A stretch of 61,231 nucleotides of DNA, filler included, from Circinaria calcarea (lineage: Eukaryota), in assembly GCA_051942165.1 (NCBI GenBank). It is 10 parts of 10 records of this genome, joined end to end, with 100 filler letters (N's around TTAATTAATTAA, not from the genome) between each part and the next. Parts side by side here need not be neighbours in the genome. Positions count along the whole stretch, not along the records: positions 24,566 to 30,596 come from JAVECS010001694.1; 9 more parts are not named here. One strand, 5' to 3'. Positions 6,298 to 39,700 of this stretch are shown in pieces; the stretch's first letter is position 1, and each line of letters opens with the position of its first letter. The translations under genes and the position numbers were made by a program. The notes under the pieces were generated by a model. It was not told the DNA's origin. It worked only from the letters and a program-made list of their open reading frames with translations, and ran no database searches.

Positions 6298-9200
6298 TCA
6301 GTTACCAGCACCATATTGCACTGCTGCAATGCTGGCGCTCCTGAGCTTCTCTACCATCGACTCTACCTCCACGCCTAAAGCAGCCTCGTCACCCTCCCCA
6401 TTCTTAGTCCCCTTCGCCCCTTTCTTTCCAGTTGCCAACTTCTTCTTCTCTTCCTTTCCCTTCTCCTTCCTCTCCACCGCGAATGCTTTCTCCCTCGCAA
6501 CCGCCTCTGCCTTTGCCGCCTTTGCCGCCTCCGCCCGCTTCTTCTCCTCCGCCCGGTTCTGCTCTTTGGCTAGGCGCTTTTCCTCCCGCTCGTCTTGTTT
6601 CCGCGCGAGCATGTCCGAGGCGTGGCGGGAGATGACGTTGCGCTTTTGCTTCAAGCGCTGCGTGAATGTCGTGGCTGTCTCCTCATCGCCACTGCCGCCT
6701 TTTTCGTCTGAGTTCTCGGATATTGTTTGGCTGGGTATGCTTTTCCCATCGGGTATTTCTTCGCTTAGACCGATTCCCAGGTCTTTGGACAGTGTAGAAT
6801 TGGGCTGTGTTACAATAGCAGATTGGCGTGTAACCTGGCCTCCTCGACCTTCGGCCTTGCTAGGCACTTTTCCATTCCGCTCATTTCTATCCTCCTTATC
6901 CTCCTGGAGGCTCTCTGAGGATGCTTGCGTTTTGGAATCTTGCTTCGATATGCTTTCTGGGCCGTCTAGAAATACCCTTAAACCGTTTATTTTTAACTCC
7001 TGGCCTTCATCGGTCATAATCCATGCCTCATTCGAATTTTGCCTAACAGAATCGTCGGGCTCTTTTCTTACCCGGTGCTGGTCCTTTGTGGCTTTGTCGG
7101 CTTGGTCTTCGATTGTAGATTCGGCGATACCTGAGTCTTGTTTCCTGGGACTTTTCCGACGATAGCCAATTCTTTGCGCTACCGTACCCCATTTCTCATT
7201 GGTGCCACACTCTTTGATCCATTGCCACATAGTGGCAAGTCTCTCATCTTCTCCGAGTTCTTTGGCGTACACTTTGACCGACTGCGACACAGTCGCAAGC
7301 CCGAGGTTACCTTGGTGTTTGAGAAATTCAGCCGCCTTGACGTAGGAGTCATTGGAGCTAATATCGTTGAGCCAACCCTGAGTAAGCGAAAGGATATGCT
7401 GCGTCTCCTCCGTCTCCGCATCACCTATGACTGAAGGACTGTTGCTTCGCATTGGCGAGGCAAACGGAGTTGACATGGCGGAACCAGCCAAGGGACTCTC
7501 CGGATATTGTTGGAATCGGATCCACGTTTTTCCATTCTCGCACAACCTCCAGCCATCTTGTTTCTCGTTTGCAACCGCTCTCAGCTTTCGCTCTTGCCTT
7601 TTGACCCGTGGATTGGTCCACCATGTTAAACCGTCCCGGTGGTGTATAAAGTAGTGCCGACCATGTTTTGTCCACCGCATTTCCCACAGAGCCGGTAAAT
7701 TCTGTCTTTCCTTTTCATATGGATGCTGGTCGGAGTACGTATTCTCCCTGAAATTGAAATAACAAAGATCCCCGTTGGCTTTGCGTCGAGAAACCCACTC
7801 AGAGGGCAGGGGTTCAATAAACACATTGTCGAAGGAGGTAAGTTCTCCGACGGAAAGTTGTGGGTACTCTCGCACTTCGAAGCCTGCCGGATCATCAAGG
7901 TCAAACACTGGGATGCTGGTATGGGCAATATCTCCACCCTCAAACCATATCCACTCAATACCCTTCTCATCCAGCTTCCAGCCACATGCATTATTCTTCA
8001 AGGTGGTATTTTTCACGAGCTTATTGCGGGTCCACCACGATGATCCTCGTCCATGTTGAGAATGAATCCAGTACTGTCTAGCATTCTGAGTATATCTCAT
8101 TTCCCAAGCTGGGAGTAGTTTCCGCCTCTTATCGTTGTTGGGGTGGGTACTCCTTCGAATCTTGCCTTTTGCATGTATATATATCTTCTGCCCATCTTCT
8201 TCTATTACGAGCTCCCATCCTGTCGGAAGAGGTTCAATAAAGCTGCTCTGCGGTGGGGTGGCGGGGCATAGTGACGCCGTATTGTCTGGAGAGTATTTTG
8301 GTCCATCGCGTGCTTTCCATCGTATTTCTCCTGTCTGTAGATTTCGATATTTTTTCCCATGATCTTCATCCCATTCCACATTCCAGTTTTCCAATAGCAG
8401 AAGCCGACGTTCATCTTCGATCTCTTGTCTCGTGGGATGCATCGTAGTAGAAGTTGATGGTTCGACGTTGTAATTCACATAATATTTCTGGCCCTCTGCT
8501 GTTCGCCGTAGCTCCCAACCGTGAGGCAGGGGCATAATTGTGGATTTTACCCAATCAGCTGTCAGTCTTCTTTTAAGTGCCCATATCTCCTTTGTTCCAG
8601 GTCGAGTACTTCGTACTTCTCCATTGAGAACATTAACGTAAGACGTCACGCCATCTTCCTCCTGAACCTCTTTCCATCTTTTAGATATTGGGACGTCTGA
8701 GACCCTTAGATACATCTCTTGCTGATCTGGAGCATCCCAAGTTTGTGTCCCATGTATATGGTCGAGGAAATATGGTATACCACTGTCGGTTAATCGTCTT
8801 TCATACCTTGCCACAAGATGCTTCTCGATTGCCCGTACATTGGACTTAGATCTTTTTCTAATGCCGCTCCCGTCAAGGCACCTTGGCCTTGCGCGCTTTG
8901 GAGATGTGAATTCGGAGTCTAGCAGCTTGGGGGACGCACCTATAGCTACCAGCGACGCTTCAATGCCACCTTTGAGCCCTACATCGGCTTCCGAAACGAA
9001 GGACTCCATCATGCGCTGACTAGCAAGGAAAACGACCGCGAACGCCCATCGTGGCGTCCCAACCACGAAGCCAGCAGTAAGCCATGGCAAAGCCTTCAGC
9101 CAAACTAATTGATCACCGTCATCCCGTATTCCTTTCACCGCTTCCGCTACCAGGTCCATCTTGAGAGCCGGTTTTCCGTCTATCCCACGCTCGAAATAAG

Positions 9201-10119
9201 AAAACTCCGTTCTCTTCCTAAGAGACAGGGAAGATTCGAGGATAGAATAGCACCAATGGTCTTTTGCAACGCTCAATTTCCTCACGATACCCTTGACGCC
9301 GTCTATATCCTCCTTAATCCATCTCCGTTTAGGGTAGTGAATAGAGCGTGACGTCAGAATTTCAAGTGTATTTGTTAAAACCCTTTCGTGCTTCGCAATG
9401 ACCTCTTTGTCACATCCTCGTCGTTCATAGTACAGTCTTGTGATTACGAGCATCGATTCGCAGAAGAATTGCCGGGTCCACTCGGTCAATGATTTCAGAC
9501 CCGCTCGATACTGGGAGAGACCTCCAATGTCACGAAGCATATTGTCAACGGCCACTTGACAGTTGTTGGACCACACAGCGTATTTGTTAAGATGCATTCG
9601 ATTCAGTCTAGAGAATTGACTATCGCCGACTGCTTTGATTTCCTGATCGGTAAGAGCAGTCACACCTTGCAGGTATGTATTTATGATCTGACTTTCTTGT
9701 TCCTCGCTCCATTTGGACATCCGTAAGCCAGTGCGCGTAGGATCCGTGTGAGCCCGTTGAAGCTCGAAGTACTGGTCGCCGACCTTGATGGCCCAGTGCA
9801 TTGCCCACGATAGTTTCGTCTTACTTTTATCCGATGCCTGCCTCAAGAGTATCGCCCCCCGAGTCCCGCCTAGGGAAACTGCTGGGGTGGTCACAATAGC
9901 GATTTCGCGTACGTCGTCCCGGTTAGCAAGGCGTCTTTTCAGCCTCTCCTCTCGGAGTAGCATTTCTCTGACATTCGGGTCCAAAGAAGCATTCTCCCCG
10001 TCCCTGGTTACATCAAATTCCATCTCTCCTAGCTTCACGTCGAGGAGGTCTTCGTTGTCCAAAGCGTCCGTGGAAAAGCGGACACAGTCTAGGCCAACAG
10101 GGTAGTATAGTGTCTTCAT
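6298..10119 (-). CDS. 1273-aa protein: permuted papain-like (PPPDE/LRAT-type) peptidase domain + hydrophobic segment + ~8 WW domains + charged coiled-coil tail
   Basis: Uninterrupted 3.8-kb ORF; MHWAIKVGDQYFEL (His108) and KYAVWSNNCQ (Cys187); WW units such as PLPHGWELRRTAEGQKYYVNY, LPAWEMRYTQNARQYWIH and LPALWEMRWTKHGRHYFIHHRDGLTWWTNP. Confidence 0.85.
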   Translation of the reverse strand: MKTLYYPVGLDCVRFSTDALDNEDLLDVKLGEMEFDVTRDGENASLDPNVREMLLREERLKRRLANRDDVREIAIVTTPAVSLGGTRGAILLRQASDKSKTKLSWAMHWAIKVGDQYFELQRAHTDPTRTGLRMSKWSEEQESQIINTYLQGVTALTDQEIKAVGDSQFSRLNRMHLNKYAVWSNNCQVAVDNMLRDIGGLSQYRAGLKSLTEWTRQFFCESMLVITRLYYERRGCDKEVIAKHERVLTNTLEILTSRSIHYPKRRWIKEDIDGVKGIVRKLSVAKDHWCYSILESSLSLRKRTEFSYFERGIDGKPALKMDLVAEAVKGIRDDGDQLVWLKALPWLTAGFVVGTPRWAFAVVFLASQRMMESFVSEADVGLKGGIEASLVAIGASPKLLDSEFTSPKRARPRCLDGSGIRKRSKSNVRAIEKHLVARYERRLTDSGIPYFLDHIHGTQTWDAPDQQEMYLRVSDVPISKRWKEVQEEDGVTSYVNVLNGEVRSTRPGTKEIWALKRRLTADWVKSTIMPLPHGWELRRTAEGQKYYVNYNVEPSTSTTMHPTRQEIEDERRLLLLENWNVEWDEDHGKKYRNLQTGEIRWKARDGPKYSPDNTASLCPATPPQSSFIEPLPTGWELVIEEDGQKIYIHAKGKIRRSTHPNNDKRRKLLPAWEMRYTQNARQYWIHSQHGRGSSWWTRNKLVKNTTLKNNACGWKLDEKGIEWIWFEGGDIAHTSIPVFDLDDPAGFEVREYPQLSVGELTSFDNVFIEPLPSEWVSRRKANGDLCYFNFRENTYSDQHPYEKERQNLPALWEMRWTKHGRHYFIHHRDGLTWWTNPRVKRQERKLRAVANEKQDGWRLCENGKTWIRFQQYPESPLAGSAMSTPFASPMRSNSPSVIGDAETEETQHILSLTQGWLNDISSNDSYVKAAEFLKHQGNLGLATVSQSVKVYAKELGEDERLATMWQWIKECGTNEKWGTVAQRIGYRRKSPRKQDSGIAESTIEDQADKATKDQHRVRKEPDDSVRQNSNEAWIMTDEGQELKINGLRVFLDGPESISKQDSKTQASSESLQEDKEDRNERNGKVPSKAEGRGGQVTRQSAIVTQPNSTLSKDLGIGLSEEIPDGKSIPSQTISENSDEKGGSGDEETATTFTQRLKQKRNVISRHASDMLARKQDEREEKRLAKEQNRAEEKKRAEAAKAAKAEAVAREKAFAVERKEKGKEEKKKLATGKKGAKGTKNGEGDEAALGVEVESMVEKLRSASIAAVQYGAGN

Positions 10120-10886
10120 GATGGATACCTAAGTGTAATGAATGATCTCAGGAGTCAATACGGAGTCGATGGTAGAAAGAATAGCATCGAGTGTTGGCAA
10201 GTGCCATGTATAAGATGCATCAGCAGGTTTTGCTGCGGCAACTTACGGTGTCATTGTGAACTGTAAATGTCCTCTAATGTACTGCTCTCCGCCCCTGCGA
10301 GCTTGGCGGATAGTTTCCCGTGTACCACAAGGCTATGATACCTGAAACGGCCCCCATTCTGCGGACTCGGGTCTGAAGGAGCTCTGAGGGTGACTCGGAA
10401 CGGCCCTGATAGGTGGTGCCTTATTGCCAAGCCTGCTGTGCCACCGCCATTGAAGCTCCCTGCGCCCGTTTCAGGTTGGAATCCATGCAACGCGGAAAAG
10501 TCATGGCAGAAGGTGCTCGGATGTTGTGGAGGCTGATAAATGCCCCGAGAACCGCAGCTCCCTGCATTCGATCAACCACCATCGGCGCGGCGGACAGAGG
10601 ACAATTTTAGGACACGAGAACGAGCACTCGTCATTCGTGATCATAAAGACTCGGTTTTCTCCCCGATTGACCTACATGTGCGGTATTTGATGGTGTTGCC
10701 CAATCTTATCGAAATTGGATACACTCTTTTAGCCTTGGTTTATTATCCAGAACGGCCATGCTTCCGTTTGAACAAGGGGCAATAGATGGAGAGGCTTCGC
10801 GCCCTGATGGAGCCACTCCGGCAAATGGAGCTGTCTACGGCATCAATTGGGTGTATGCAAGAGTGTGCAAGGGCGTCTCCATAGCG

Positions 10887-25438: not shown

Positions 25439-26203
25439 GGTACCGGTATGGGTCTTTTTCGCTGACGATCGTCGTGGACAGATGGATGAGAGGTGAAAGA
25501 CCACGTCTTCTCATAATGACCGAATCCATCGTGATTTAGGGTGATGGATGGTGCAGCGCACTCGCGATACTGTTCAAGTTGAGGTTTGTTTCTTCCTGGG
25601 TCGCAGGCATTTCAATGTTAGCGCGGTCTTTTCGCAACAAATCAAATAAGCCCAAACCACGAGCTCGAATCGTAACGAGAACAGGAGTAGGCACCGGAGG
25701 ATACCCTCAATGTTCAATGTTTTGTGTTTCCTCTCAAAGAACCTGTGCGGTCTCTTCGCTGAGGAGACAGGCCGGAGCTTTGGCCGGAAGCCTTAGGGCT
25801 GACATTTTATGCTTTCATGAAATGTGCATAACTCCCGAGTTTGCCCCGCTTGCGGTTTGCCCCCATTAACCCCATGACCGAGTCAACCTTCGTAAGCCAC
25901 GAGCAACTCTCTTATCCAAAGGAAAGGTACATCCCAAAGCCAGAACCTACGGACACTACCACTCGTGTGCAAGCTACCAAACACACACATACACTGGTCT
26001 GATCCAAATATTGAACAAAGCAAGCGTCACAGGATCTCTTTATCAGCAAGAGCTTTGGAGCGCCCGCCAACATTTTTTAGTCTTAGACCAGACAACAGGA
26101 AACGTCCCGGCTGTGCGAACTACGCCCACGTCTGAAAAAATAAGGACGGTCGATACCTTGCCTTCTGCTGTGGCATCACGATCCATCAACTAGACGCATC
26201 AAA

Positions 26204-27273
26204 ATGAGTAGCCCAAAGAGGAGGATAGAGACGGATGTAAGTGGCCGAGGAATAGATACCTAGAAAGAGCATGACTATAAAGGTAGTCGGTAAAGGAAAA
26301 GAGCTGACATTTGTTCTGCCGCGGCATTAGGTGATGAAGTAAGAAGACTCCGATCATCCTTCAAAGGGGCTTTCAGTACTGACATGGGGCCAGGATGTAC
26401 GTGGCTACCAAGACCCAGGACGCAATTCAATACATGCAATGCCTGGATATTGGGCTGATGGGAATCGGCATAGGATGATGAGTGATTATGAGGTCACATT
26501 GGTCAATGACAACAGTGAGTAAGAAGTTCGATCACTGCTTGATCCAGTGATGACGGGTGCAAGACTCGAGAAAGCTGACATATGGTAGTGTATGGAAATG
26601 ATCTTTGCTACGCTAAAGAACGGGAGTTGATTGAGGGACAGGCAGGAGTTCTACGTCCGTTTCAAGGGCCCAGAGGAAAGTGAGTAGTACGATCCCTCGT
26701 GAGTAAGCTTCATGGCTGATAGTCTGCTTGCAGCTCCGTTCCAGGGAGGTCTCTGGAAAGTCCATGTAGAGCTCCCAGATCAATACCCTTATAAAAGCCC
26801 AAGCATCGGCTTTGTGAATCGCATCTTCCATCCTAATATCGATGAATTGTTCGATGCCCCTTTCAACTTATATGGATGTCGACTCATGACTGATTAGATC
26901 CGGATCTGTTTGCCTCGACGTCATCAATCAGACTTGGTCGCCCATGTTCGACATGATCAACATCTTTGAGGTCTTTCTGCCACAGCTCCTCCGATACCCA
27001 AACCCAACCGATCCCCTGAACGGTGAGGCTGCCTCGCTTCTAATGAGGGAGCCAAAGAGCTACGATGCCAAGGTCAAAGGTCAACCACCTATTCTACAAC
27101 CATCTTTCGTGGGCCGTCAACTGACGAGAAGGATATTAGATTACGTTACAAAATATGCGAGCAGGGAGGCCGCCGACGAAGCAGGAGATGATAGCGAGTC
27201 AGAGGACGAGATGAGCTCTGTAGGTAGCTTTGAGTCTGGAGATGAGGAACCGGCCGGGCAGATGGAGGTCTGA
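26204..27273 (+). CDS. UBC8: ubiquitin-conjugating enzyme E2 (Ubc8/UBE2H), 9 exons including micro-exons
   Basis: Exons 26204-26236, 26331-26338, 26394-26396, 26474-26514, 26589, 26642-26679, 26734-26848, 26898-27079, 27140-27273 give [69 protein letters not shown] and an acidic tail. Confidence 0.93.
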
Positions 27274-28908
27274 CCAACCGGATCTATCAAGGGGTAATGA
27301 GGCGTTGAAATGGTTGAACTGGAATAGCATGTATGGGGAACGGGATCGGCCGGCGGTGAGATATTCGAAGGAACAGTTATCCCTTCGCACCATAGCAAAT
27401 GTCGAGCATATTTACCTTAAATGTAACCTGGGAATCTAGACTCTCTAATGGTCCCTGTATGCTGCCTTGGGTCCTGTAATCATCCGCTCGACCAACACTG
27501 CTGGAACGTCGCGGCCGAGAGGAAGGTAGGCGCAGACTCCCGCACTGATCTAGCGCTAACGGATCAAAACACATGGCAACCCTGAATGTGGAGCCTCTGG
27601 ACGCCATTCTGCAGTCCGTGGAGGGATGAGGTGCAGCCTATGAGAGGGTGGAAAGCTCCTTGGTGAACTTGTGGCGGATCTGGAACCTCCCTCAGATCGC
27701 GTGCACATTCTGCGCTCAGCCTTATCCAAATGTCCGTCCGTTGTAGACCCCGTATAGTCCGGGAGATTGCACGAAAGTGCCGACATTTCCATGTGACACT
27801 TCTATCCCGCTCGGGCTGCTGACGGTCGCGCATAGATTGCTGGGTCGGTTGGCTTGTATTGGAGGTTGATTGATGTTATCCAGTTGCTGGTTGCGTGTCT
27901 TTCTGCCAATTGCCATGCCACCCCCCTGTTTCCCGGAGCCGGCGAGATTGGACCAGGGATGGAAGAGGAGGAAGCGAGAGAAGGATGAGGAGGCTGGCCA
28001 CGTGCGATATGCAGAGACGAGGGGTGCCGTCGTTAGCCTCTGCTGGAAGCGGAGCCTTTAGATGCGTTTCAGACCTCGATGCTGACCGTGGAGAAAAAGA
28101 GCGCATCGTGTTCGGATGGTCATGCCTGTTGGTGGGTGGCTCCTTGCTGATCATTCCTTTTCATCTGTGGCCGGTATACCCTGACCGACAACATGTCATC
28201 CCAACCAGTGAAAATCCGGTCTCTGCAGGTCGAAAACGATGCGGGGGCACACACATGTTTCGATTATCTTACGATCGCGAGAGAAGGCAGACCCCTTCAT
28301 CAGAGTCTTCCGGACAATGTCCCGCACGTTGAGAACGACTTTTGGCTATGGAGGGATCGGTAGCTTGCTTGCTTTATTTAAACCTTCCGCTACTCTGTAT
28401 TGCCCTCACTGCAGCTTCTGAAACATAGAAAATAACGTGGCCGTAGGGTAGCAAACTGATTTGGTTACCTTAGATTCGACTAGTTATGCATGAATTCCCC
28501 TGTAGCGCAATAGACCCCTGTCATCCTCCGTGCGAACTTTTGTAAACGAGGACGGGGGTTGCCTGTGGTAAAGTAGTCCTGACCGTCGGGCCGCCTCGTT
28601 ACAAGGGATGTACAACTGTACATTGACTTATACACAAACATGTTGTTGCTTACAGGACTTGATTGATGAAGGTAAATGTTCCTTGTCCCCCCCTTTGTGG
28701 CCACTAAGTTGACTTCCACCGCCGCGGATTACTCATGGAGCCTTCAGTAGGAATTTCACCATCACGACAGCCCACCAACTGCGCCGCCTAACTCAATTCC
28801 CCTTATTTGGGATCCCATCTCACCGAGGCACGCACAATTCGTTTACGGTCCTTTCCATGTAACGGCGGAGTTGATGATTCATACTGTACATATCAAGCTT
28901 CAGCTACG

Positions 28909-31767: not shown

Positions 31768-33992
31768 ATGGCCCCAGTAAGCAGCTCAACAAGCTCCAAT
31801 AAGGGCCGGTTGTGCAACGGCTAACTGGTCTGATCCGCACAGTCAAAGTCAAAGAGGGCCAGGCAGGAGGCTGGAGAACAGCAATATGGTATACAATCTA
31901 TCGTCACCCTGGAATTCATTCACAGTACCTAGGCTAACATGGCACATAGGTTCCATTTTCTCCGTGTCTGGGTAGGTTCAACTTTTACAGAGGAAACATC
32001 CTTAAATCTAATCAAGATAAAGTCCCGTTATCGTGGCAGAAAACATGATTGGATGTGCTATGTACGAGCTGGTAGGTATTGAACCATATCAATGGGTCCT
32101 CAGGTATTGACTCAGAAACAGGTCAAAGTTGGGCACGACGAGCTTGTCGGAGAGGTTATTAGGCTTGATGCAGACAAAGCTACCATTCAGGTTTACGAGG
32201 AGACAGGTACTACTCATATCTAGAGATGGGTCTGTACTTGAGGCTGATTTCTCCACCACTTAGCCGGGGTTACTGTCGGCGATCCAGTTTTGCGCACAGG
32301 AAAACCTCTCTCCGTTGAGCTCGGTCCGGGATTAATGGAGACCATATACGACGGGATACAAAGACCACTCAGGTCGATATCAGAAGAATCAAATAGTATC
32401 TATATTCCTCGAGGTATCGCCGTGCCGTCGCTAAATCGAGAAACGAAATGGGACTTCAAGCCCGGAGATCTGAAGGTTGGCGACCATATCACGGGCGGCG
32501 ATATCTTTGGGAGTGTATACGAAAACAGTTTGTTGAACGACCACAAAATTCTCCTACCTCCGCGTGCACGTGGTACCATCACGCGCATTGCAGAAAAGGG
32601 TAGCTACACTGTGGACGAAAAGATACTCGAGGTGGAATTTGACGGGAAGAAGTCTGAATACTCCATGATGCACACATGGCCTGTTCGTGTACCCAGACCT
32701 ACCAGCGAGAAGCTTCCGTCGGACGCTCCTTTTATCGTGGGCCAGCGGGTGCTTGACGCCCTGTTCCCTAGTGTGCAAGGAGGAACCGTCTGCATCCCAG
32801 GGGCATTTGGATGCGGAAAAACCGTTATCAGTCAGTCAGTGTCCAAGTTCTCGAATAGCGACATCATTATTTACGTAGGCTGCGGGGAGCGGGGAAACGA
32901 GATGGCTGAAGTGCTGATGGACTTCCCCGAGGTAAAAGTTGTCCTAGTACATGATTTGAACACGACTAATCACCTTTCCAGCTTACCATCAATATTGACG
33001 GACGTCAGGAACCCATCATGAAACGTACATCACTCATTGCTAATACGTCTAACATGCCTGTGGCTGCACGAGAGGCGTCCATCTACACCGGTATAACGGT
33101 TGCCGAGTACTTCCGAGACCAAGGAAAGAACGTTGCTATGATGGCAGACTCAACATCTCGGTGGGCTGAGGCACTTCGGGAAATTTCAGGTCGCTTGGGA
33201 GAGATGCCGGCTGATCAGGGCTTCCCTGCCTACCTCGGAGCTAAATTGGCATCGTTTTACGAGCGTGCCGGCAAAGTAACAGCTCTTGGTAGCCCTGAGC
33301 GAGAAGGCAGTGTCAGTATTGTCGGGGCTGTCAGTCCTCCAGGTGGTGACTTCTCCGATCCTGTCACTAGCAGTACACTTGGAATTGTACAAGTCTTCTG
33401 GGGCTTGGACAAGAAGTTGGCTCAAAGGAAGCACTTCCCTTCCATTAATACTTCCCAATCATACAGCAAATATACCACCATCCTCGACAGGTTCTATCAG
33501 AAGGAGAGCCCAGAATTCCCTCGCTTAAGAGATCGTATCAAGGAATTACTATCCAATTCGGAAGAACTCGATCAGGTTGTCCAGCTCGTGGGCAAATCTG
33601 CTCTTGGCGATTCTGACAAGATCACGCTAGATGTTGCCACTTTATTAAAGGATGACTTCCTACAACAAAACGGCTATAGCGACTACGATCAGTTCTGTCC
33701 TCTATGGAAAACAGAATACATGATGAAGGCATTTATGGGCTTCCATGACGAAAGCCAAAAGGCAATCTCGCAAGGCCACAGCTGGGGTAAGGTCAGGGAG
33801 GCAACGAGTGACCTTCAGAGCCAGCTTCGGAGCATGAAGTTTGAAGTCCCAAATGAAGGGGAGGAGAAGATCTCCAAAAAGGTATGGTCTCCTTCGAATT
33901 ATATGCATACAGACCTAGAGCTAATAGGACTATAGTACGACGAGCTATTGCAGCACATGACTGAGAAGTTCGCATCTGTAATGGACGAATGA
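31768..33992 (+). CDS. VMA1: V-type H+-ATPase catalytic subunit A
   Basis: Several short 5' exons; Walker [34 protein letters not shown] and [11 protein letters not shown]; no intein at the YVG/C site. Confidence 0.97.
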
Positions 33993-34553: not shown

Positions 34554-36725
34554 ATGGCCACGCAGCCTGGCTACTCGTGAGACTTGACGATATCGAAACG
34601 TTAACCGTTACTAACGGATGCGCAGGATCAATGTCAACGATCCCGGCCTAATCACACTCGTCAACAAGCTTCAAGATGTCTTTACTACAGTAGGAGTATG
34701 TGTTAAAGTTACAGCTGGTACAACTGGATCATCACGCTGACTGTTGTTGCCTACAGGTACAAAACCCGATAGACCTACCCCAAATCGCCGTCGTCGGTTC
34801 GCAATCTAGCGGGAAGAGCTCGGTCTTGGAGAATATAGTAGGGAGAGATTTGTATGTACCATTTACGAGGGCGAGGAGATCTCCGGAGATCTACCACGGC
34901 GCTGACAGGCCACATCTATAGCTTACCACGAGGGACCGGTATAGTCACGAGACGACCTCTCATCCTTCAGCTCATCAACAGGTCCTCGCCAGAACAACCT
35001 CAACTACTGAACGGAGTAAATGGGGATTCAAAAGGCTCGGACAAGGAAGCCAACTCGTTGGAGTGGGGCGAGTTCCTCCATATACCCGGTCAGAAATTCT
35101 ATGATTTCAACAAGATTCGAGATGAGATTGTCAAGGAAACAGAATCAAAAACTGGGCGAAACGCCGGCATATCACCAGCACCCATCAACCTACGGATCTA
35201 CTCGCCGAACGTCTTGACCCTTACGCTGGTGGACTTGCCTGGCTTGACCAAGGTGCCGGTTGGAGACCAGCCAAGAGATATTGAAAAACAAATCAAGGAT
35301 ATGGTACTGAAGCAAATCCAAAAGCCTAATGCGATCATCCTAGCCGTCACTGCTGCAAACACAGATCTGGCCAATTCAGATGGGCTAAAGTTGGCTCGAG
35401 AGGTAGACCCTGAGGGTCAGCGAACAATCGGGGTCTTGACCAAAGTCGATTTGATGGATGAAGGAACTGACGTTGTGGATATCTTGGCTGGGAGAATAAT
35501 ACCCCTACGCCTGGGATATGTACCTGTGGTCAATCGAGGACAGCGAGATATTGAGAATAAGAGAGCAATATCCTTTGCGTTAGAGCATGAGAAGAACTTC
35601 TTTGAAAATCACAAAGCTTATCGGAATAAGAGCTCTTACTGCGGGACGCCATATCTTGCCCGGAAACTCAACCTTGTAAGGGGGCCAGTGATTTGGTATA
35701 CTTTCGTCAGATTAGCTAATACTTGCATAGATTCTTATGATGCATATCAAGCAAACGCTCCCAGACATCAAAGCTCGAATAACATCGTCCTTGCAGAAAT
35801 ACACTGCTGAGCTAAACCAACTTGGTGATTCCATGATGGGCAACAGTGGAAACATCATCTTGACCATTATTACGGATTTCTGCAACGAGTACAGAACAGT
35901 GCTAGAAGGTAGCAGCCAAGAGCTTTCCAACGTTGAATTGTCAGGTGGTGCGAGAATCAGTTTTGTCTTTCATGAACTGTACTCGAACGGAGTAAAAGCA
36001 ATGGATCCTTTTGACCAAGTAAAGGACGTCGATATTCGGACCTATCTCGTCAATTCCTCCGGTCCCTCTCCAGCACTATTTGTTGGTACGACAGCATTTG
36101 AATTGATTGTCAAACAACAGATCAAGCGATTGGAGGACCCAAGTGTTAAATGCGTATCATTGGTTTATGACGAGCTCGTCCGCATCCTCGCGCAACTGCT
36201 CACCAAGCAAATGTTCCGACGATATCCATCCCTCAAAGAGAAATTCCACGCCGTTGTCATCAACTTCTTCAAGAAAGTAATGGAACCAACCAACAAACTT
36301 GTCAAGGACCTCGTAGCAATGGAAGCATGCTACATCAACACTGGTCACCCAGACTTCCTCAACGGGCATAGAGTAGGTGAAGTTTTCTCTCAACTCTACT
36401 CCAAAGGAGCAGATCCGTCATACACTCCCTACATTTCTCCATTAAAATCTAAATCACACACTATGCCATCTCCTGCAAAATCTAACTATTCAAACCTACA
36501 GGCAATGGCAATTGTCAACGAACGACATAGTGCCAGTAAGCCTACCCAAGTTGACCCCAAGACGGGCAAACCTCTCCCGCCGCAGATGCCACCGCGTGCA
36601 GCAAGTCCATCGATGGATACGCTAGCAGACAATAGTAACGCAGGATTTTTTGGGAGTTTCTTTGCACCAAAAAACAAGAAGAAGATGGCGGCAATGGAAT
36701 CGCCCCCACCAGTATTAAAGGCATC
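34554..36725 (+). CDS. VPS1: dynamin-like GTPase Vps1 (3' truncated)
   Basis: [38 protein letters not shown]; Vps1-type [10 protein letters not shown] and [17 protein letters not shown]. Confidence 0.95.
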
Positions 36726-39700
36726 NNNNNNNNNNNNNNNNNNNNNNNNNNNNNNNNNNNNNNNNNNNNTTAATTAATTAANNNNNNNNNNNNNNNNNNN
36801 NNNNNNNNNNNNNNNNNNNNNNNNNGAGGTCACCTGCCCGATGACGATGTTGTGGCAGTGGCCCAGGATGGAGACGTCGTCGCCGATGGCGTGGCGAAGC
36901 GATCGGCCTAATATGTCTGTCTTGCCGACAACTAAGGTTGTGATCGTCCAAGGGAAAGTCATGCTCTTCGAGGCGAAGTCTGGGTCCGGGGAACCGTGAT
37001 TCCCAAGGTGGTTCGCGAGCAGGGCGACGGTTGAAGGCACTTCGCTCCCGAGGAACTACTGAAAGGATGTTAGAATGCCTTTTGGGAAAGAAGAAAGAGC
37101 TCTTGTGAAAATGAAGAAGAGGCTTACGTTTTAGCCCGCCATGATTTCTAGGTGGTGTCTGATGTCTGGAGTTGGGGTAGGCGTAGCATCCATGCGAAAG
37201 GTAGGGGTCCTGATAAGCTCTCTCTCCTCTCAACATCCGCTGTCGGTATTCGGCAATATCTTTTAGCCCTGCTAGCTTCACAAGAGCATTGCCGAAGGGG
37301 ACCATGATTGAACAGCCGAAATGTAATGAAAGAGCTATCTGTGATTGCCACAAGTGCTCTAATGACCTTGTGTGTTTGTATCTGAAAGGTTTCCTTTTCG
37401 AGGTTCCTTGATCAGAAGACTTATGAAGAAAGTGATCTCGTGTACCGCCTTTGATTGCTTGCTATTCAGGACATAGGCAATGCACCAACATAATTTCGTA
37501 CTTGTACTTACCACTTTTGAGACTGGCAGATTTGCAGAAACCTCAGCTTTATAGTAGCACCAAACACCGGTGACTCACGCTGCTTTCGGCTTGATTGTTT
37601 GCTGCCTAAAGCGAAGCAAACACAGTCGCCGGCTAATGACAGCGAAGTAGCCGTTTAGCCACGAGCAATCGTATGTACAAGCTGTAGGTATATAGTCGGA
37701 TATGACGAGAAGATTTTATCCTCATTTAGATCAGAAACATGTGCTGGGGAATGAAACAAGCGATCGGTAAGCAAGTGAGATAGGAGACATGAAGAGTATA
37801 GGTCTAGATCCATGACCGATCCAGATGAAGATATCAGTTAAATGCGTACTCAAACCGAGATAGCCTATTATCCGTTGCAATAGGTATGAGAATACTGAAC
37901 AACCTGTAAAGGGCCTTGGAGAGGTTTAAGAAAGCTCTGGTCATCCGTGGCGAGGTGTCGGAGTTGATGGCTCTGCAGACACAGCACGAGCAGAGAGTAA
38001 CAGGTCTAGATTCATGAATGGCCTAGGACATCCTACCTCCCACATGCATGCTGCACCCAAGCGAGGGCTATGCGTGATTTCTAGACAATCTTGGGCAAGC
38101 TGTTTGATCGCACCAACATACCTCCCGGATGTTAATTCGAAATCTATTGTTAAACCTGTAGAGATGTGCTGTATTTCCGTATCCTTCGATGAGTTTTCAG
38201 CTCGCCGATCCAGTTTTCTGAAAGCATCACGTTGACACAGTCTTATCTTTCCATGAAGTACATGTTATGACAGCCTTCTGTGTTTCATCCTATCACCAAG
38301 TTTTCTTTGAAATCCTACAGAGAGGTTGGATCACCCACTTCAATGATCCTATCCCAGTGGTAGAACATGAGCTAGTCCGGCTCCTCGACGGGCCGTAGCG
38401 CCTCGCAGTGGCACATCGTGCCTAGATCAACCTGAAGAATACTGCGCTCACCGGACCCCTGGTTGTGTCTTTGCCATCAGAGCCGGATATCACATAATTC
38501 GGTCTATACGTAGTAGCTGTTATTGGTGTTACTGAACGGGAAGTAGTTTCTGATATCACATCAGCCTTCAATTCGTAATCTCCTTTACCTTTTCCCCAAG
38601 TCAGATCTCCGTTAAGGTTCAAGATAATATGTACTCTTGTTTCAGCTACAAATACACTACCTCGGGATTCCCAGTCAAACGGCTTCGGTCCATGTTCCGA
38701 GGTTCAATGACCAATCGACTCCCTATTCGACTTCACTCTCATGCTTTGGTAACCCCAGCAAGGGGTTGGGAGGAGGTTCAGACACTGGATATTCTCCTTG
38801 CAAATAGATATGAGGAAAAACCAAGTTCTGGGTCTCTGGGACTCGTTAATGTTTGCTTTTAGGTTCTTGTATGGTTGGGAGTCTATATGATACTGGCTTG
38901 CCTATATAGCGTTGAAATTCGGTGCCAAACCCTCCATGGCTATCAAGCTAGTATTAGCAATGTCCTCCAACAAGCATCTTATCAAGACTGATATAGCATG
39001 GTTGCTAGATTGACAGGCACGCCATCTCCAATGGTGATTGGCCTTGCTCTTGTTCTCGCCGTTTTACCCTGGCCTGTGGCTAAGCAGGTCATCATAAAGC
39101 CATGCTGTAACTGAGCCGGTTATGTTACGGAAGGTCGAGCATATGCATAGCCGGCTCGGTTCTGTTCTGCACTGGGGGGTTGTCGGCGGTTTAATAAGAA
39201 GATCCTATTTGGTAGATTCGTGAATGGAGTGTCGAGAGTAAATCGTCCTCACGAAGAACACGACAGGCACAAGGACTGTGTTAGCAACCACACAGGTGAG
39301 GCATGTAGGGGAGGTATTTCTTGAAGCACGCTCTGACGAAAATCCTACATGGCTTCAACATAGATTCAACGCTTGGCACTTTGAAGTATACTAGGTACAA
39401 TATCTTAGTTCGTTCACTCTGTAGCTGTTTATCATATGCCGTGATAGGGTATATAAGAGGCTAGACACATAATAGGCAGCAGTCAGTCTAGAGAAGGACC
39501 TAATATCTCGCAGCCTCGGGAACAAAGATGCTGCCGTCGATAGCCGCGAAGATTACACGATTCACTTACGATACAAGTGGAACCTGGACGGCGTCTGAGT
39601 CACAACACGGAGCGAAGTACTAAACTGGTGTATCATTATGAACTATCATTCGTGACAAATTCCCGTATGCTTGGAGTGGAGCCTCTCGCCTGCTCAAGCG

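Follow-up and report, generated by a model that had tools for sequence, protein, structure and literature searches.

Exons consisting of a single nucleotide have been described in plants and in fungi. For the single-nucleotide exon of Arabidopsis APC11, substitution of the base gave the proof (Guo and Liu 2015, PMC4674806), and 1-nt microexons in APC11 and VPS55 have been reported across land plants (Yu et al. 2022, PMC8831610). In fungi, a detailed description exists for one case, the Fusarium CYP621A P450 genes, with a one-nucleotide exon, a G, reported within Fusarium (Nelson and Syed 2026, PMC12940212); its authors suggest that a G makes rescue by a cryptic AG-G-GT easier. In addition, long reads revealed 13 1-nt exons in 13 genes of Coprinopsis cinerea (PMC12230235), and a text search of five supplementary files of that article did not return the term 'UBC8'. 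A regulated microexon is on record for Trichoderma Xlr2 (PMC11121469).

One-base exons are thus already known, with APC11, VPS55, CYP621A and the 13 Coprinopsis exons published, and an earlier note on the DNA studied here, which called them very rarely documented, somewhat overstated their rarity. The case in UBC8 is unusually widespread: the exon is found in most of the filamentous ascomycete loci examined and is wider in distribution than that of CYP621A. A literature search, which lay largely outside subscription journals, found no report of a one-base exon in UBC8.

The UBC8 exon resembles that of CYP621A in several respects, since both lie in a fungal nuclear gene, provide the middle base of a conserved codon, are flanked by canonical introns, are missed by gene models and are supported by RNA. 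They differ in that the CYP621A base is a G and is reported within Fusarium, whereas in UBC8 it is a T in a housekeeping gene, apparently occurs in five classes and is one of three microexons. With APC11 and VPS55, UBC8 shares a constitutive, frame-determining exon that is conserved in a large clade, unannotated and secondarily lost via intron loss. Sequential removal by intron definition has been proposed for APC11 as well; there, however, the upstream intron is much longer, the A being located 333 nt after the previous exon compared to 74 nt in UBC8, and proof came from the substituted base in cDNA, whereas the UBC8 case rests on contigs and sequence comparison. The Coprinopsis exons likewise show that 1-nt exons recur in intron-rich fungi, in that case a basidiomycete. 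Stwintrons, known from filamentous ascomycetes, are similar in that two U2 reactions follow one another, each by intron definition (Fekete, Flipphi and colleagues; PMC6616335), but they leave no base in the mRNA and their external intron becomes complete only when the internal intron has been excised, whereas both UBC8 introns are complete and the T is kept. What UBC8 adds is its breadth, a T where CYP621A has a G, three microexons in a cluster and a testable pattern of signals from which a splicing order is predicted.

The UBC8 gene and the base at 26589

The window, that is the whole stretch of 61,231 nucleotides of Circinaria calcarea DNA that was analysed, contains a UBC8 gene with nine exons (Table 1). 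With T26589 included, the model gives an open reading frame for an E2 of 184 amino acids. Over 251 residues, the Utp11 frame of the window matches a protein labelled Circinaria calcarea with 100% identity. The genus Circinaria, lichen-forming fungi, belongs to the Lecanoromycetes. Both the HPN motif and the catalytic Cys are present in the UBC domain of the protein, and its nearest relatives carry the database names Ubc8/UBE2H and the Pfam domain PF00179, placing it in the Ubc8/UBE2H E2 family, whose partner in yeast and human is the GID/CTLH E3 ligase. When the full-length homologue P0074 was used as query in place of the window's own protein, the closest solved chains were the yeast 24-kDa E2 (8PMQ) and human UBE2H, and Met-Gln is present at the same spot in the solved yeast Ubc8 chain. 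Compared with its family the protein is ordinary; the gene structure alone is special, with three microexons of 8, 3 and 1 nt within the first 86 coding bases. The donors of introns 7 and 8 (at 26849 and 27080) are poor, yet both joints were confirmed by RNA contigs.

Table 1. Exons and introns of UBC8, in window positions
Feature	Position	Strand	Description	Evidence
Exon 1	26204..26236	+	33 nt, ATG at 26204	RNA contigs cover 26127-26238
Intron 1	26237..26330	+	94 nt, strong donor and branch site, before 8-nt microexon	RNA joint 26238-26474
Exon 2	26331..26338	+	8-nt microexon	RNA contigs
Intron 2	26339..26393	+	55 nt, strong branch site, before 3-nt microexon	
Exon 3	26394..26396	+	3-nt microexon	RNA contigs, 4/4 runs
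Intron 3	26397..26473	+	77 nt	RNA contigs, spliced alignment
Exon 4	26474..26514	+	41 nt, last base is A of split Met codon	Frame, RNA contigs
Intron 4	26515..26588	+	74 nt, GTGAGT...GCTGAC (26574-26579)...TAG (26586-26588)	
Exon 5	26589..26589	+	One-nucleotide exon T, middle base of Met29 codon	RNA joint, AG-N-GT uniqueness, conservation
Intron 5	26590..26641	+	52 nt, GTATGG (26590)...CAG (26639-26641), weak branch site (candidates A26616, A26630)	
Exon 6	26642..26679	+	38 nt, first base is G26642 of split Met codon	Frame, RNA contigs
Intron 6	26680..26733	+	54 nt	RNA joint 26677-26734, 2 letters between
Exon 7	26734..26848	+	115 nt, holds HPN motif	RNA contigs, translation
Intron 7	26849..26897	+	49 nt, donor GTTCGA	RNA joint 26848-26898
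Exon 8	26898..27079	+	182 nt, catalytic Cys region	RNA contigs, protein matches
Intron 8	27080..27139	+	60 nt, donor GTCAAC	RNA joint skipping 60 nt
Exon 9	27140..27273	+	Encodes acidic tail, holds stop codon; end placed to about one or two bases	RNA contigs, translation

Position 26589 is the only AG-N-GT site within 26515-26641, and the T is flanked on both sides by complete canonical GT-AG introns. The one-nucleotide exon and the coordinates of both introns had been proposed from the sequence by the earlier note; they proved exact and are backed by RNA contigs. The same note had claimed that skipping the T shifts the frame, and indeed a stop follows 24 codons on when it is left out; the T is thus needed both for the reading frame and for the conserved Met. 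Two features had been missed, the poor branch site of intron 5 and a cryptic in-frame donor, GTAAGA, at 26519 inside intron 4. Joined to acceptor 26641, this donor would yield a single in-frame intron of 123 nt, with the Met exchanged for Ser-Glu. Therefore, the frame argument alone is no proof of the exon, and RNA is needed. Other joins (retention of intron 4, acceptor 26626, donor 26519 combined with the T, retention of intron 5) were considered as well; each of them runs into a stop or shifts the frame.

Four metatranscriptome runs (X1-X4), all from one study, were compared with the window over 26050-27600. These data are contigs, not reads; their main source is a close relative and not the window's strain, about 93-98% identical in exons, and since contigs drop rare forms, minor isoforms are invisible in them. 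A one-base exon predicts that a spliced RNA skips 126 nt, compared to 123 nt for the single in-frame intron and 127 nt for exon skipping. In three of the four runs (X2, X3 and X4), 126 nt (74 plus 52) are left out at the joint over this position; these three joints bear on the exon through the length of the skip, the T itself being read in X1. The X1 contig leaves exon 4 at 26514 and continues with 18 loose letters that correspond to T plus 26642-26658, so that the cDNA reading predicted earlier was found, in the close relative. The T is thus present in this mRNA and derives neither from the neighbouring exons nor from the intron ends. Since the bases adjoining both outer exons are G, a single intron is unable to supply it.

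The runs contain, over the T26589 site, fully spliced contigs and one fully unspliced contig. The latter (X3 record 13, depth 3.8) spans 26490-26666 and is colinear over both introns; none of its 13 listed intron substitutions is located at the T or the flanking AG and GT (3 of its 16 differences are unlisted). The same four runs support the 8-nt exon, the 3-nt exon and introns 6-8, and in all of them the letters between the two sides of the upstream joint correspond to 26333-26338 plus 26394-26396. A joint from 26674 to 26899 in X2, with unknown letters between, was not accepted as exon skipping and probably stems from another fungus. Taken together, we consider it practically beyond doubt that T26589 is a real one-base exon of UBC8. 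It is a constitutive exon, around which two separate ordinary spliceosomal reactions take place.

Distribution of the layout and its record in databases

Metagenome contigs were scanned with exon 8, giving at least 439 relatives among the 585 pattern matches listed, and the best 80 of these were kept; 76 of them contain both flanking peptides and 4 are too short. Spliced alignment placed introns at the window's eight coding positions in these best 80 of at least 439 loci, with scattered losses. Both introns around a single T were found in 57 of the 76 loci, and 57 of the 66 intron-bearing loci thus share the one-base-exon layout. One locus (L030) has intron 4 only and none has intron 5 only; 8 of the 76 carry other introns but neither of these two, and 10 are intron-free. 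The base is a T in 57/57 related loci with both introns and, overall, in all 58 loci. Together with the window, the loci from the best 80 of at least 439 were sorted into 36 groups with less than 70% identity over the intron pair. AG-T-GT is present in 36/36 of these groups compared to 2.9 expected from shuffles, and it is kept although the surrounding introns are less than 70% alike between groups. The conservation of this motif, named earlier as a check on the exon, therefore holds. Removal of all 127 nt shifts the frame in 36/36 groups, and exon skipping or intron retention leads to an early stop in 36, 34 and 32 of the 36 groups. Introns 4 and 5 show no extra conservation, which might have pointed to a function, among the best 80 of at least 439 loci (37 and 36 of 45 groups, compared to 42, 42 and 39 for introns 6, 7 and 8).

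A second line of mRNA support comes from the loci themselves. The coding sequence of the intron-free locus L012 is 98.4% identical to that of the intron-bearing loci L026 and L028, with 0 mismatches to L028 over exons 1-6, including the 8-, 3- and 1-nt exons, and L012 looks like a transcript of the L026/L028 species or one near it. The pair L067/L068 (93.8%) behaves in the same way.

Best protein scores with wide margins place groups in the Sordariomycetes, Leotiomycetes and Dothideomycetes and the window in the Lecanoromycetes; such labels were given for large margins only, many loci are unplaced, and we take the organism names of the best-scoring proteins to indicate the class. L030 adjoins a gene nearest to Endocarpon pusillum (74%), with Chaetothyriales-type fungi among the named relatives. 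It falls in a clade (support 99/96) that includes L035, with both introns, and five loci from which all five 5' introns are absent. This clade is a probable fifth class, so that the layout apparently spans five classes. The presence of both introns in all other groups suggests that their absence in this clade is a secondary loss. A single origin of the layout, in an ancestor shared by most filamentous ascomycetes, is probable, with losses in some lines thereafter; the tree, which has weak deep branches and a midpoint root and leaves out L062, L076 and L079, was not used to date the gain.

Several loci deviate from the common layout. The Verrucariales-like locus L030 (intron positions 44, 85, 124 and 239) has kept intron 4 and is without intron 5, the T being merged with the next exon, and thus represents a natural one-intron control. 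L007, L025, L034, L042 and L057 form a probably Chaetothyriales-like clade without all five 5' introns and with introns 6-8 kept, which would fit a single cDNA-mediated loss. L011 and L021 are without introns 4 and 5 and keep one or three others; they may be partly spliced transcripts or independent losses. L053, L059, L060, L061 and L076 have the one-base exon followed by a Ser codon instead of Gln. The intron pair around the 3-nt exon is found at the same positions in 27/36 groups, and intron 2 is lost in 6/36, where the 8- and 3-nt exons are fused to an exon of 11 nt (both from the best 80 of at least 439 loci).

The expectation of the earlier note that gene predictors miss the exon was borne out. 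The 169 named NCBI fungal proteins that we inspected are cluster representatives together with up to 15 listed members from each of 10 clusters, and this sample is biased towards odd models. Only 12 of the 169 are correct at the junction; in 14 the Met is included with a run-on into other sequence, 60 have other wrong joins, 62 are missing the upstream exon, 15 start downstream and 6 use a donor of the 26519 type. Of the public Ubc8 models in this biased sample that reach the junction, 142/154 are wrong there, a practical concern for the cloning or modelling of this E2. As some public models are right, a few database records may contain the exon already.

Splice signals and the order of intron removal

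Our best overall explanation, to which we assign a probability of about 0.7, is a one-base exon whose flanking introns are removed sequentially by intron definition, usually intron 4 first. Intron definition is described as the default in ascomycetes (PMC6616335), and each UBC8 intron would be recognised as a unit over its full length. The same few bases belong both to the intron-4 acceptor and to the intron-5 donor with its U1 site, which argues that the two reactions are sequential, not simultaneous. This argument has also been made for APC11, for which removal of one intron after the other was proposed (PMC4674806). Of the claims made earlier, that of ordered splicing by intron definition thus stands as far as sequential intron definition is the best reading; the order itself is still deduced from the signals. 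We regard sequential removal by intron definition as very probable, and an upstream-first order as fairly probable, judging from the signal pattern.

This pattern was seen when branch sites were scored by a matrix for which the six other introns served as training set. The mean branch scores for introns 1-8 are 8.6, 9.0, 6.8, 8.3, 5.9, 7.1, 6.3 and 7.0. The strongest branch sites are thus those of introns 1, 2 and 4, each located directly upstream of a microexon (8, 3 and 1 nt), and the introns following the 3-nt and 1-nt exons have weak ones. In the groups from the best 80 of at least 439 loci, the score of intron 4 exceeds that of intron 5 in 31/36 and is lower in 5 (Wilcoxon p 1.5e-6, an optimistic value since the groups are related), and intron 2 exceeds intron 3 in 26/27. 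Control pairs without a microexon between them show no asymmetry (17:15 for introns 6 versus 7, 14:16 for 7 versus 8). The donor of intron 4 likewise matches U1 better than that of intron 5 in 19 groups, worse in 2 and equally in 15 (36 groups, best 80 of at least 439 loci). Sorted by set, with a rounded matrix that gives 30/36 overall, intron 4 scores higher in 7/7 Sordariomycete-like, 4/4 Leotiomycete-like and 9/11 Dothideomycete-like groups; the asymmetry is weak near the window in the tree (2/5) and in one mixed set (2/3). The window itself has a score of 8.9 for intron 4 and at best 4.4 (A26616) and 3.9 (A26630) for intron 5.

Thus, no good branch site was found for intron 5 in the window genome. 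GCTAAA at 26612 is doubtful, as three surrounding bases (two of them within the motif) differ in the relative's contig, and TTGAT at 26627-26631 is an equally weak candidate. The best intron 5 branch sites deviate from the CTRAY consensus (CTCAC, CTTAC, CTCAT, CTTAT) in 13 loci (L001, L004, L005, L018, L019, L029, L043, L048, L054, L066, L068, L071 and L072), and they are weakest in Leotiomycete-like loci (mean 2.4). Intron 5 ends in AAG in 5/36 groups (best 80 of at least 439 loci).

These signals suggest how skipping could be avoided. The strong, near branch site of intron 4 would capture the donor at 26515 before the weak, far one can do so, and intron 4, having the better donor and branch site, would usually leave first. 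With intron 4 gone, the bases preceding the intron-5 donor would read CAT or TAT instead of AGT, a better fit for U1, and intron 5 would then be removed with the improved donor. The calculated match of this donor to U1 rises from 4.9 to 6.3 of 9 once intron 4 is removed; the gain arises because an Asn codon precedes the Met and is hence no sign of selection. The pattern of a strong upstream and a weak downstream intron may therefore hint at how one-base exons in general avoid being skipped, and the two introns, with 126 nt in total and dozens of natural variants, provide a small test bed for splicing order and for the avoidance of skipping.

The alternative that survives best accepts the exon and assumes that intron 5 is removed first or that the order is free, branch strength differing for other reasons; we consider this rather unlikely, though to be taken seriously. 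The contigs of the four runs contain no intermediates with a single intron removed, as such an order would allow, but contigs drop rare forms and this observation is uninformative either way. For a 9-nt exon of potato invertase the downstream intron is reportedly removed first (cited in PMC4674806), and in the 5/36 groups mentioned above intron 5 outscores intron 4. However, the alternation of strong and weak signals follows all three microexons and not the position in the gene. Moreover, if intron 5 left first, loci in which CAG encodes the Gln (12/36 groups) would have another AG shortly behind the intron-4 acceptor, a possible out-of-frame trap. For these reasons we prefer the upstream-first order.

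A further-reaching version of the upstream-first order is tentative and, in our view, improbable as it stands. The 5' end of UBC8 could be a built-in relay of ordered splicing kept since early filamentous ascomycetes, in which each microexon would be protected by a strong intron ahead of it and a deliberately weakened one behind it, and in which the intron-5 donor would become functional only through the splicing of intron 4. If so, the weak intron 5 could be a held-back, rate-limiting step that sets Ubc8 levels, because in nearly all loci an early stop results when the exon is skipped or an intron retained.

Other readings of the T

It is very unlikely that there is no one-base exon and that a single intron of 123 nt, from donor 26519 to acceptor 26641, replaces the Met by Ser-Glu. 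In favour of this reading, the frame is maintained across the join, the cryptic donor has a score of 6.4 compared to 7.5 for the true donor in the window genome, and the 6 named database proteins mentioned above are built this way. The earlier note had singled out frame-keeping alternative splice sites in cDNA as the observation that would speak against the exon; the RNA joints, however, skip 126 and not 123 nt, which contradicts the 26519 donor as source of the main mRNA. In the relative's unspliced contig (one contig, depth 3.8) one base is missing at 26521, so that this donor is spoiled. A GT at the corresponding offset is found in 26/36 groups, but none of these scores up to the true donor and only 5 of the 26 lie above the 5th percentile of real donors. 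Among 79 environmental proteins, 29 have both flanking motifs, and these read MQ in 28 cases, MS in 1 and S-x-Q in 0. The 123-nt form may exist as a minor isoform in this one genome.

Little speaks for a T of other origin in the RNA, either an edited base or a contribution from an RNA donor with a different gene structure, and we give this reading a very low probability. The RNA does come from a relative and not from the window strain, but the unspliced contig of this relative runs collinearly through both introns, a single intron cannot give a T between exons adjoined by G on both sides, and AG-T-GT is kept while the surrounding introns are less than 70% alike. No process of G-to-U editing is known from fungi.

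A stwintron-like arrangement, as the earlier note had suggested, or a recursive zero-length exon, with the T being intronic, has a negligible probability: stwintrons are described in these fungi and the T abuts a GT donor after removal of intron 4, resembling a donor-disrupted stwintron, but by definition (PMC6616335) the internal intron of a stwintron sits within the donor, branch site or acceptor of the external intron, and the complete unit is spliced out, whereas in UBC8 neither intron interrupts such an element of the other, both are complete in the DNA with their own intact GT and AG, one base is retained between acceptor and donor (126 and not 127 nt are skipped), and removal of 127 nt would bring about the frameshift seen in all 36 groups.

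Elsewhere in the window, an open frame of 1276 codons at 6298-10128 on the minus strand encodes repeated tryptophan-rich units that, from reading the translation, resemble WW domains. On the plus strand, two frames located side by side at 32248-33935 and 34842-36777 resemble, by eye, V-ATPase subunit A and a Vps1-type dynamin.
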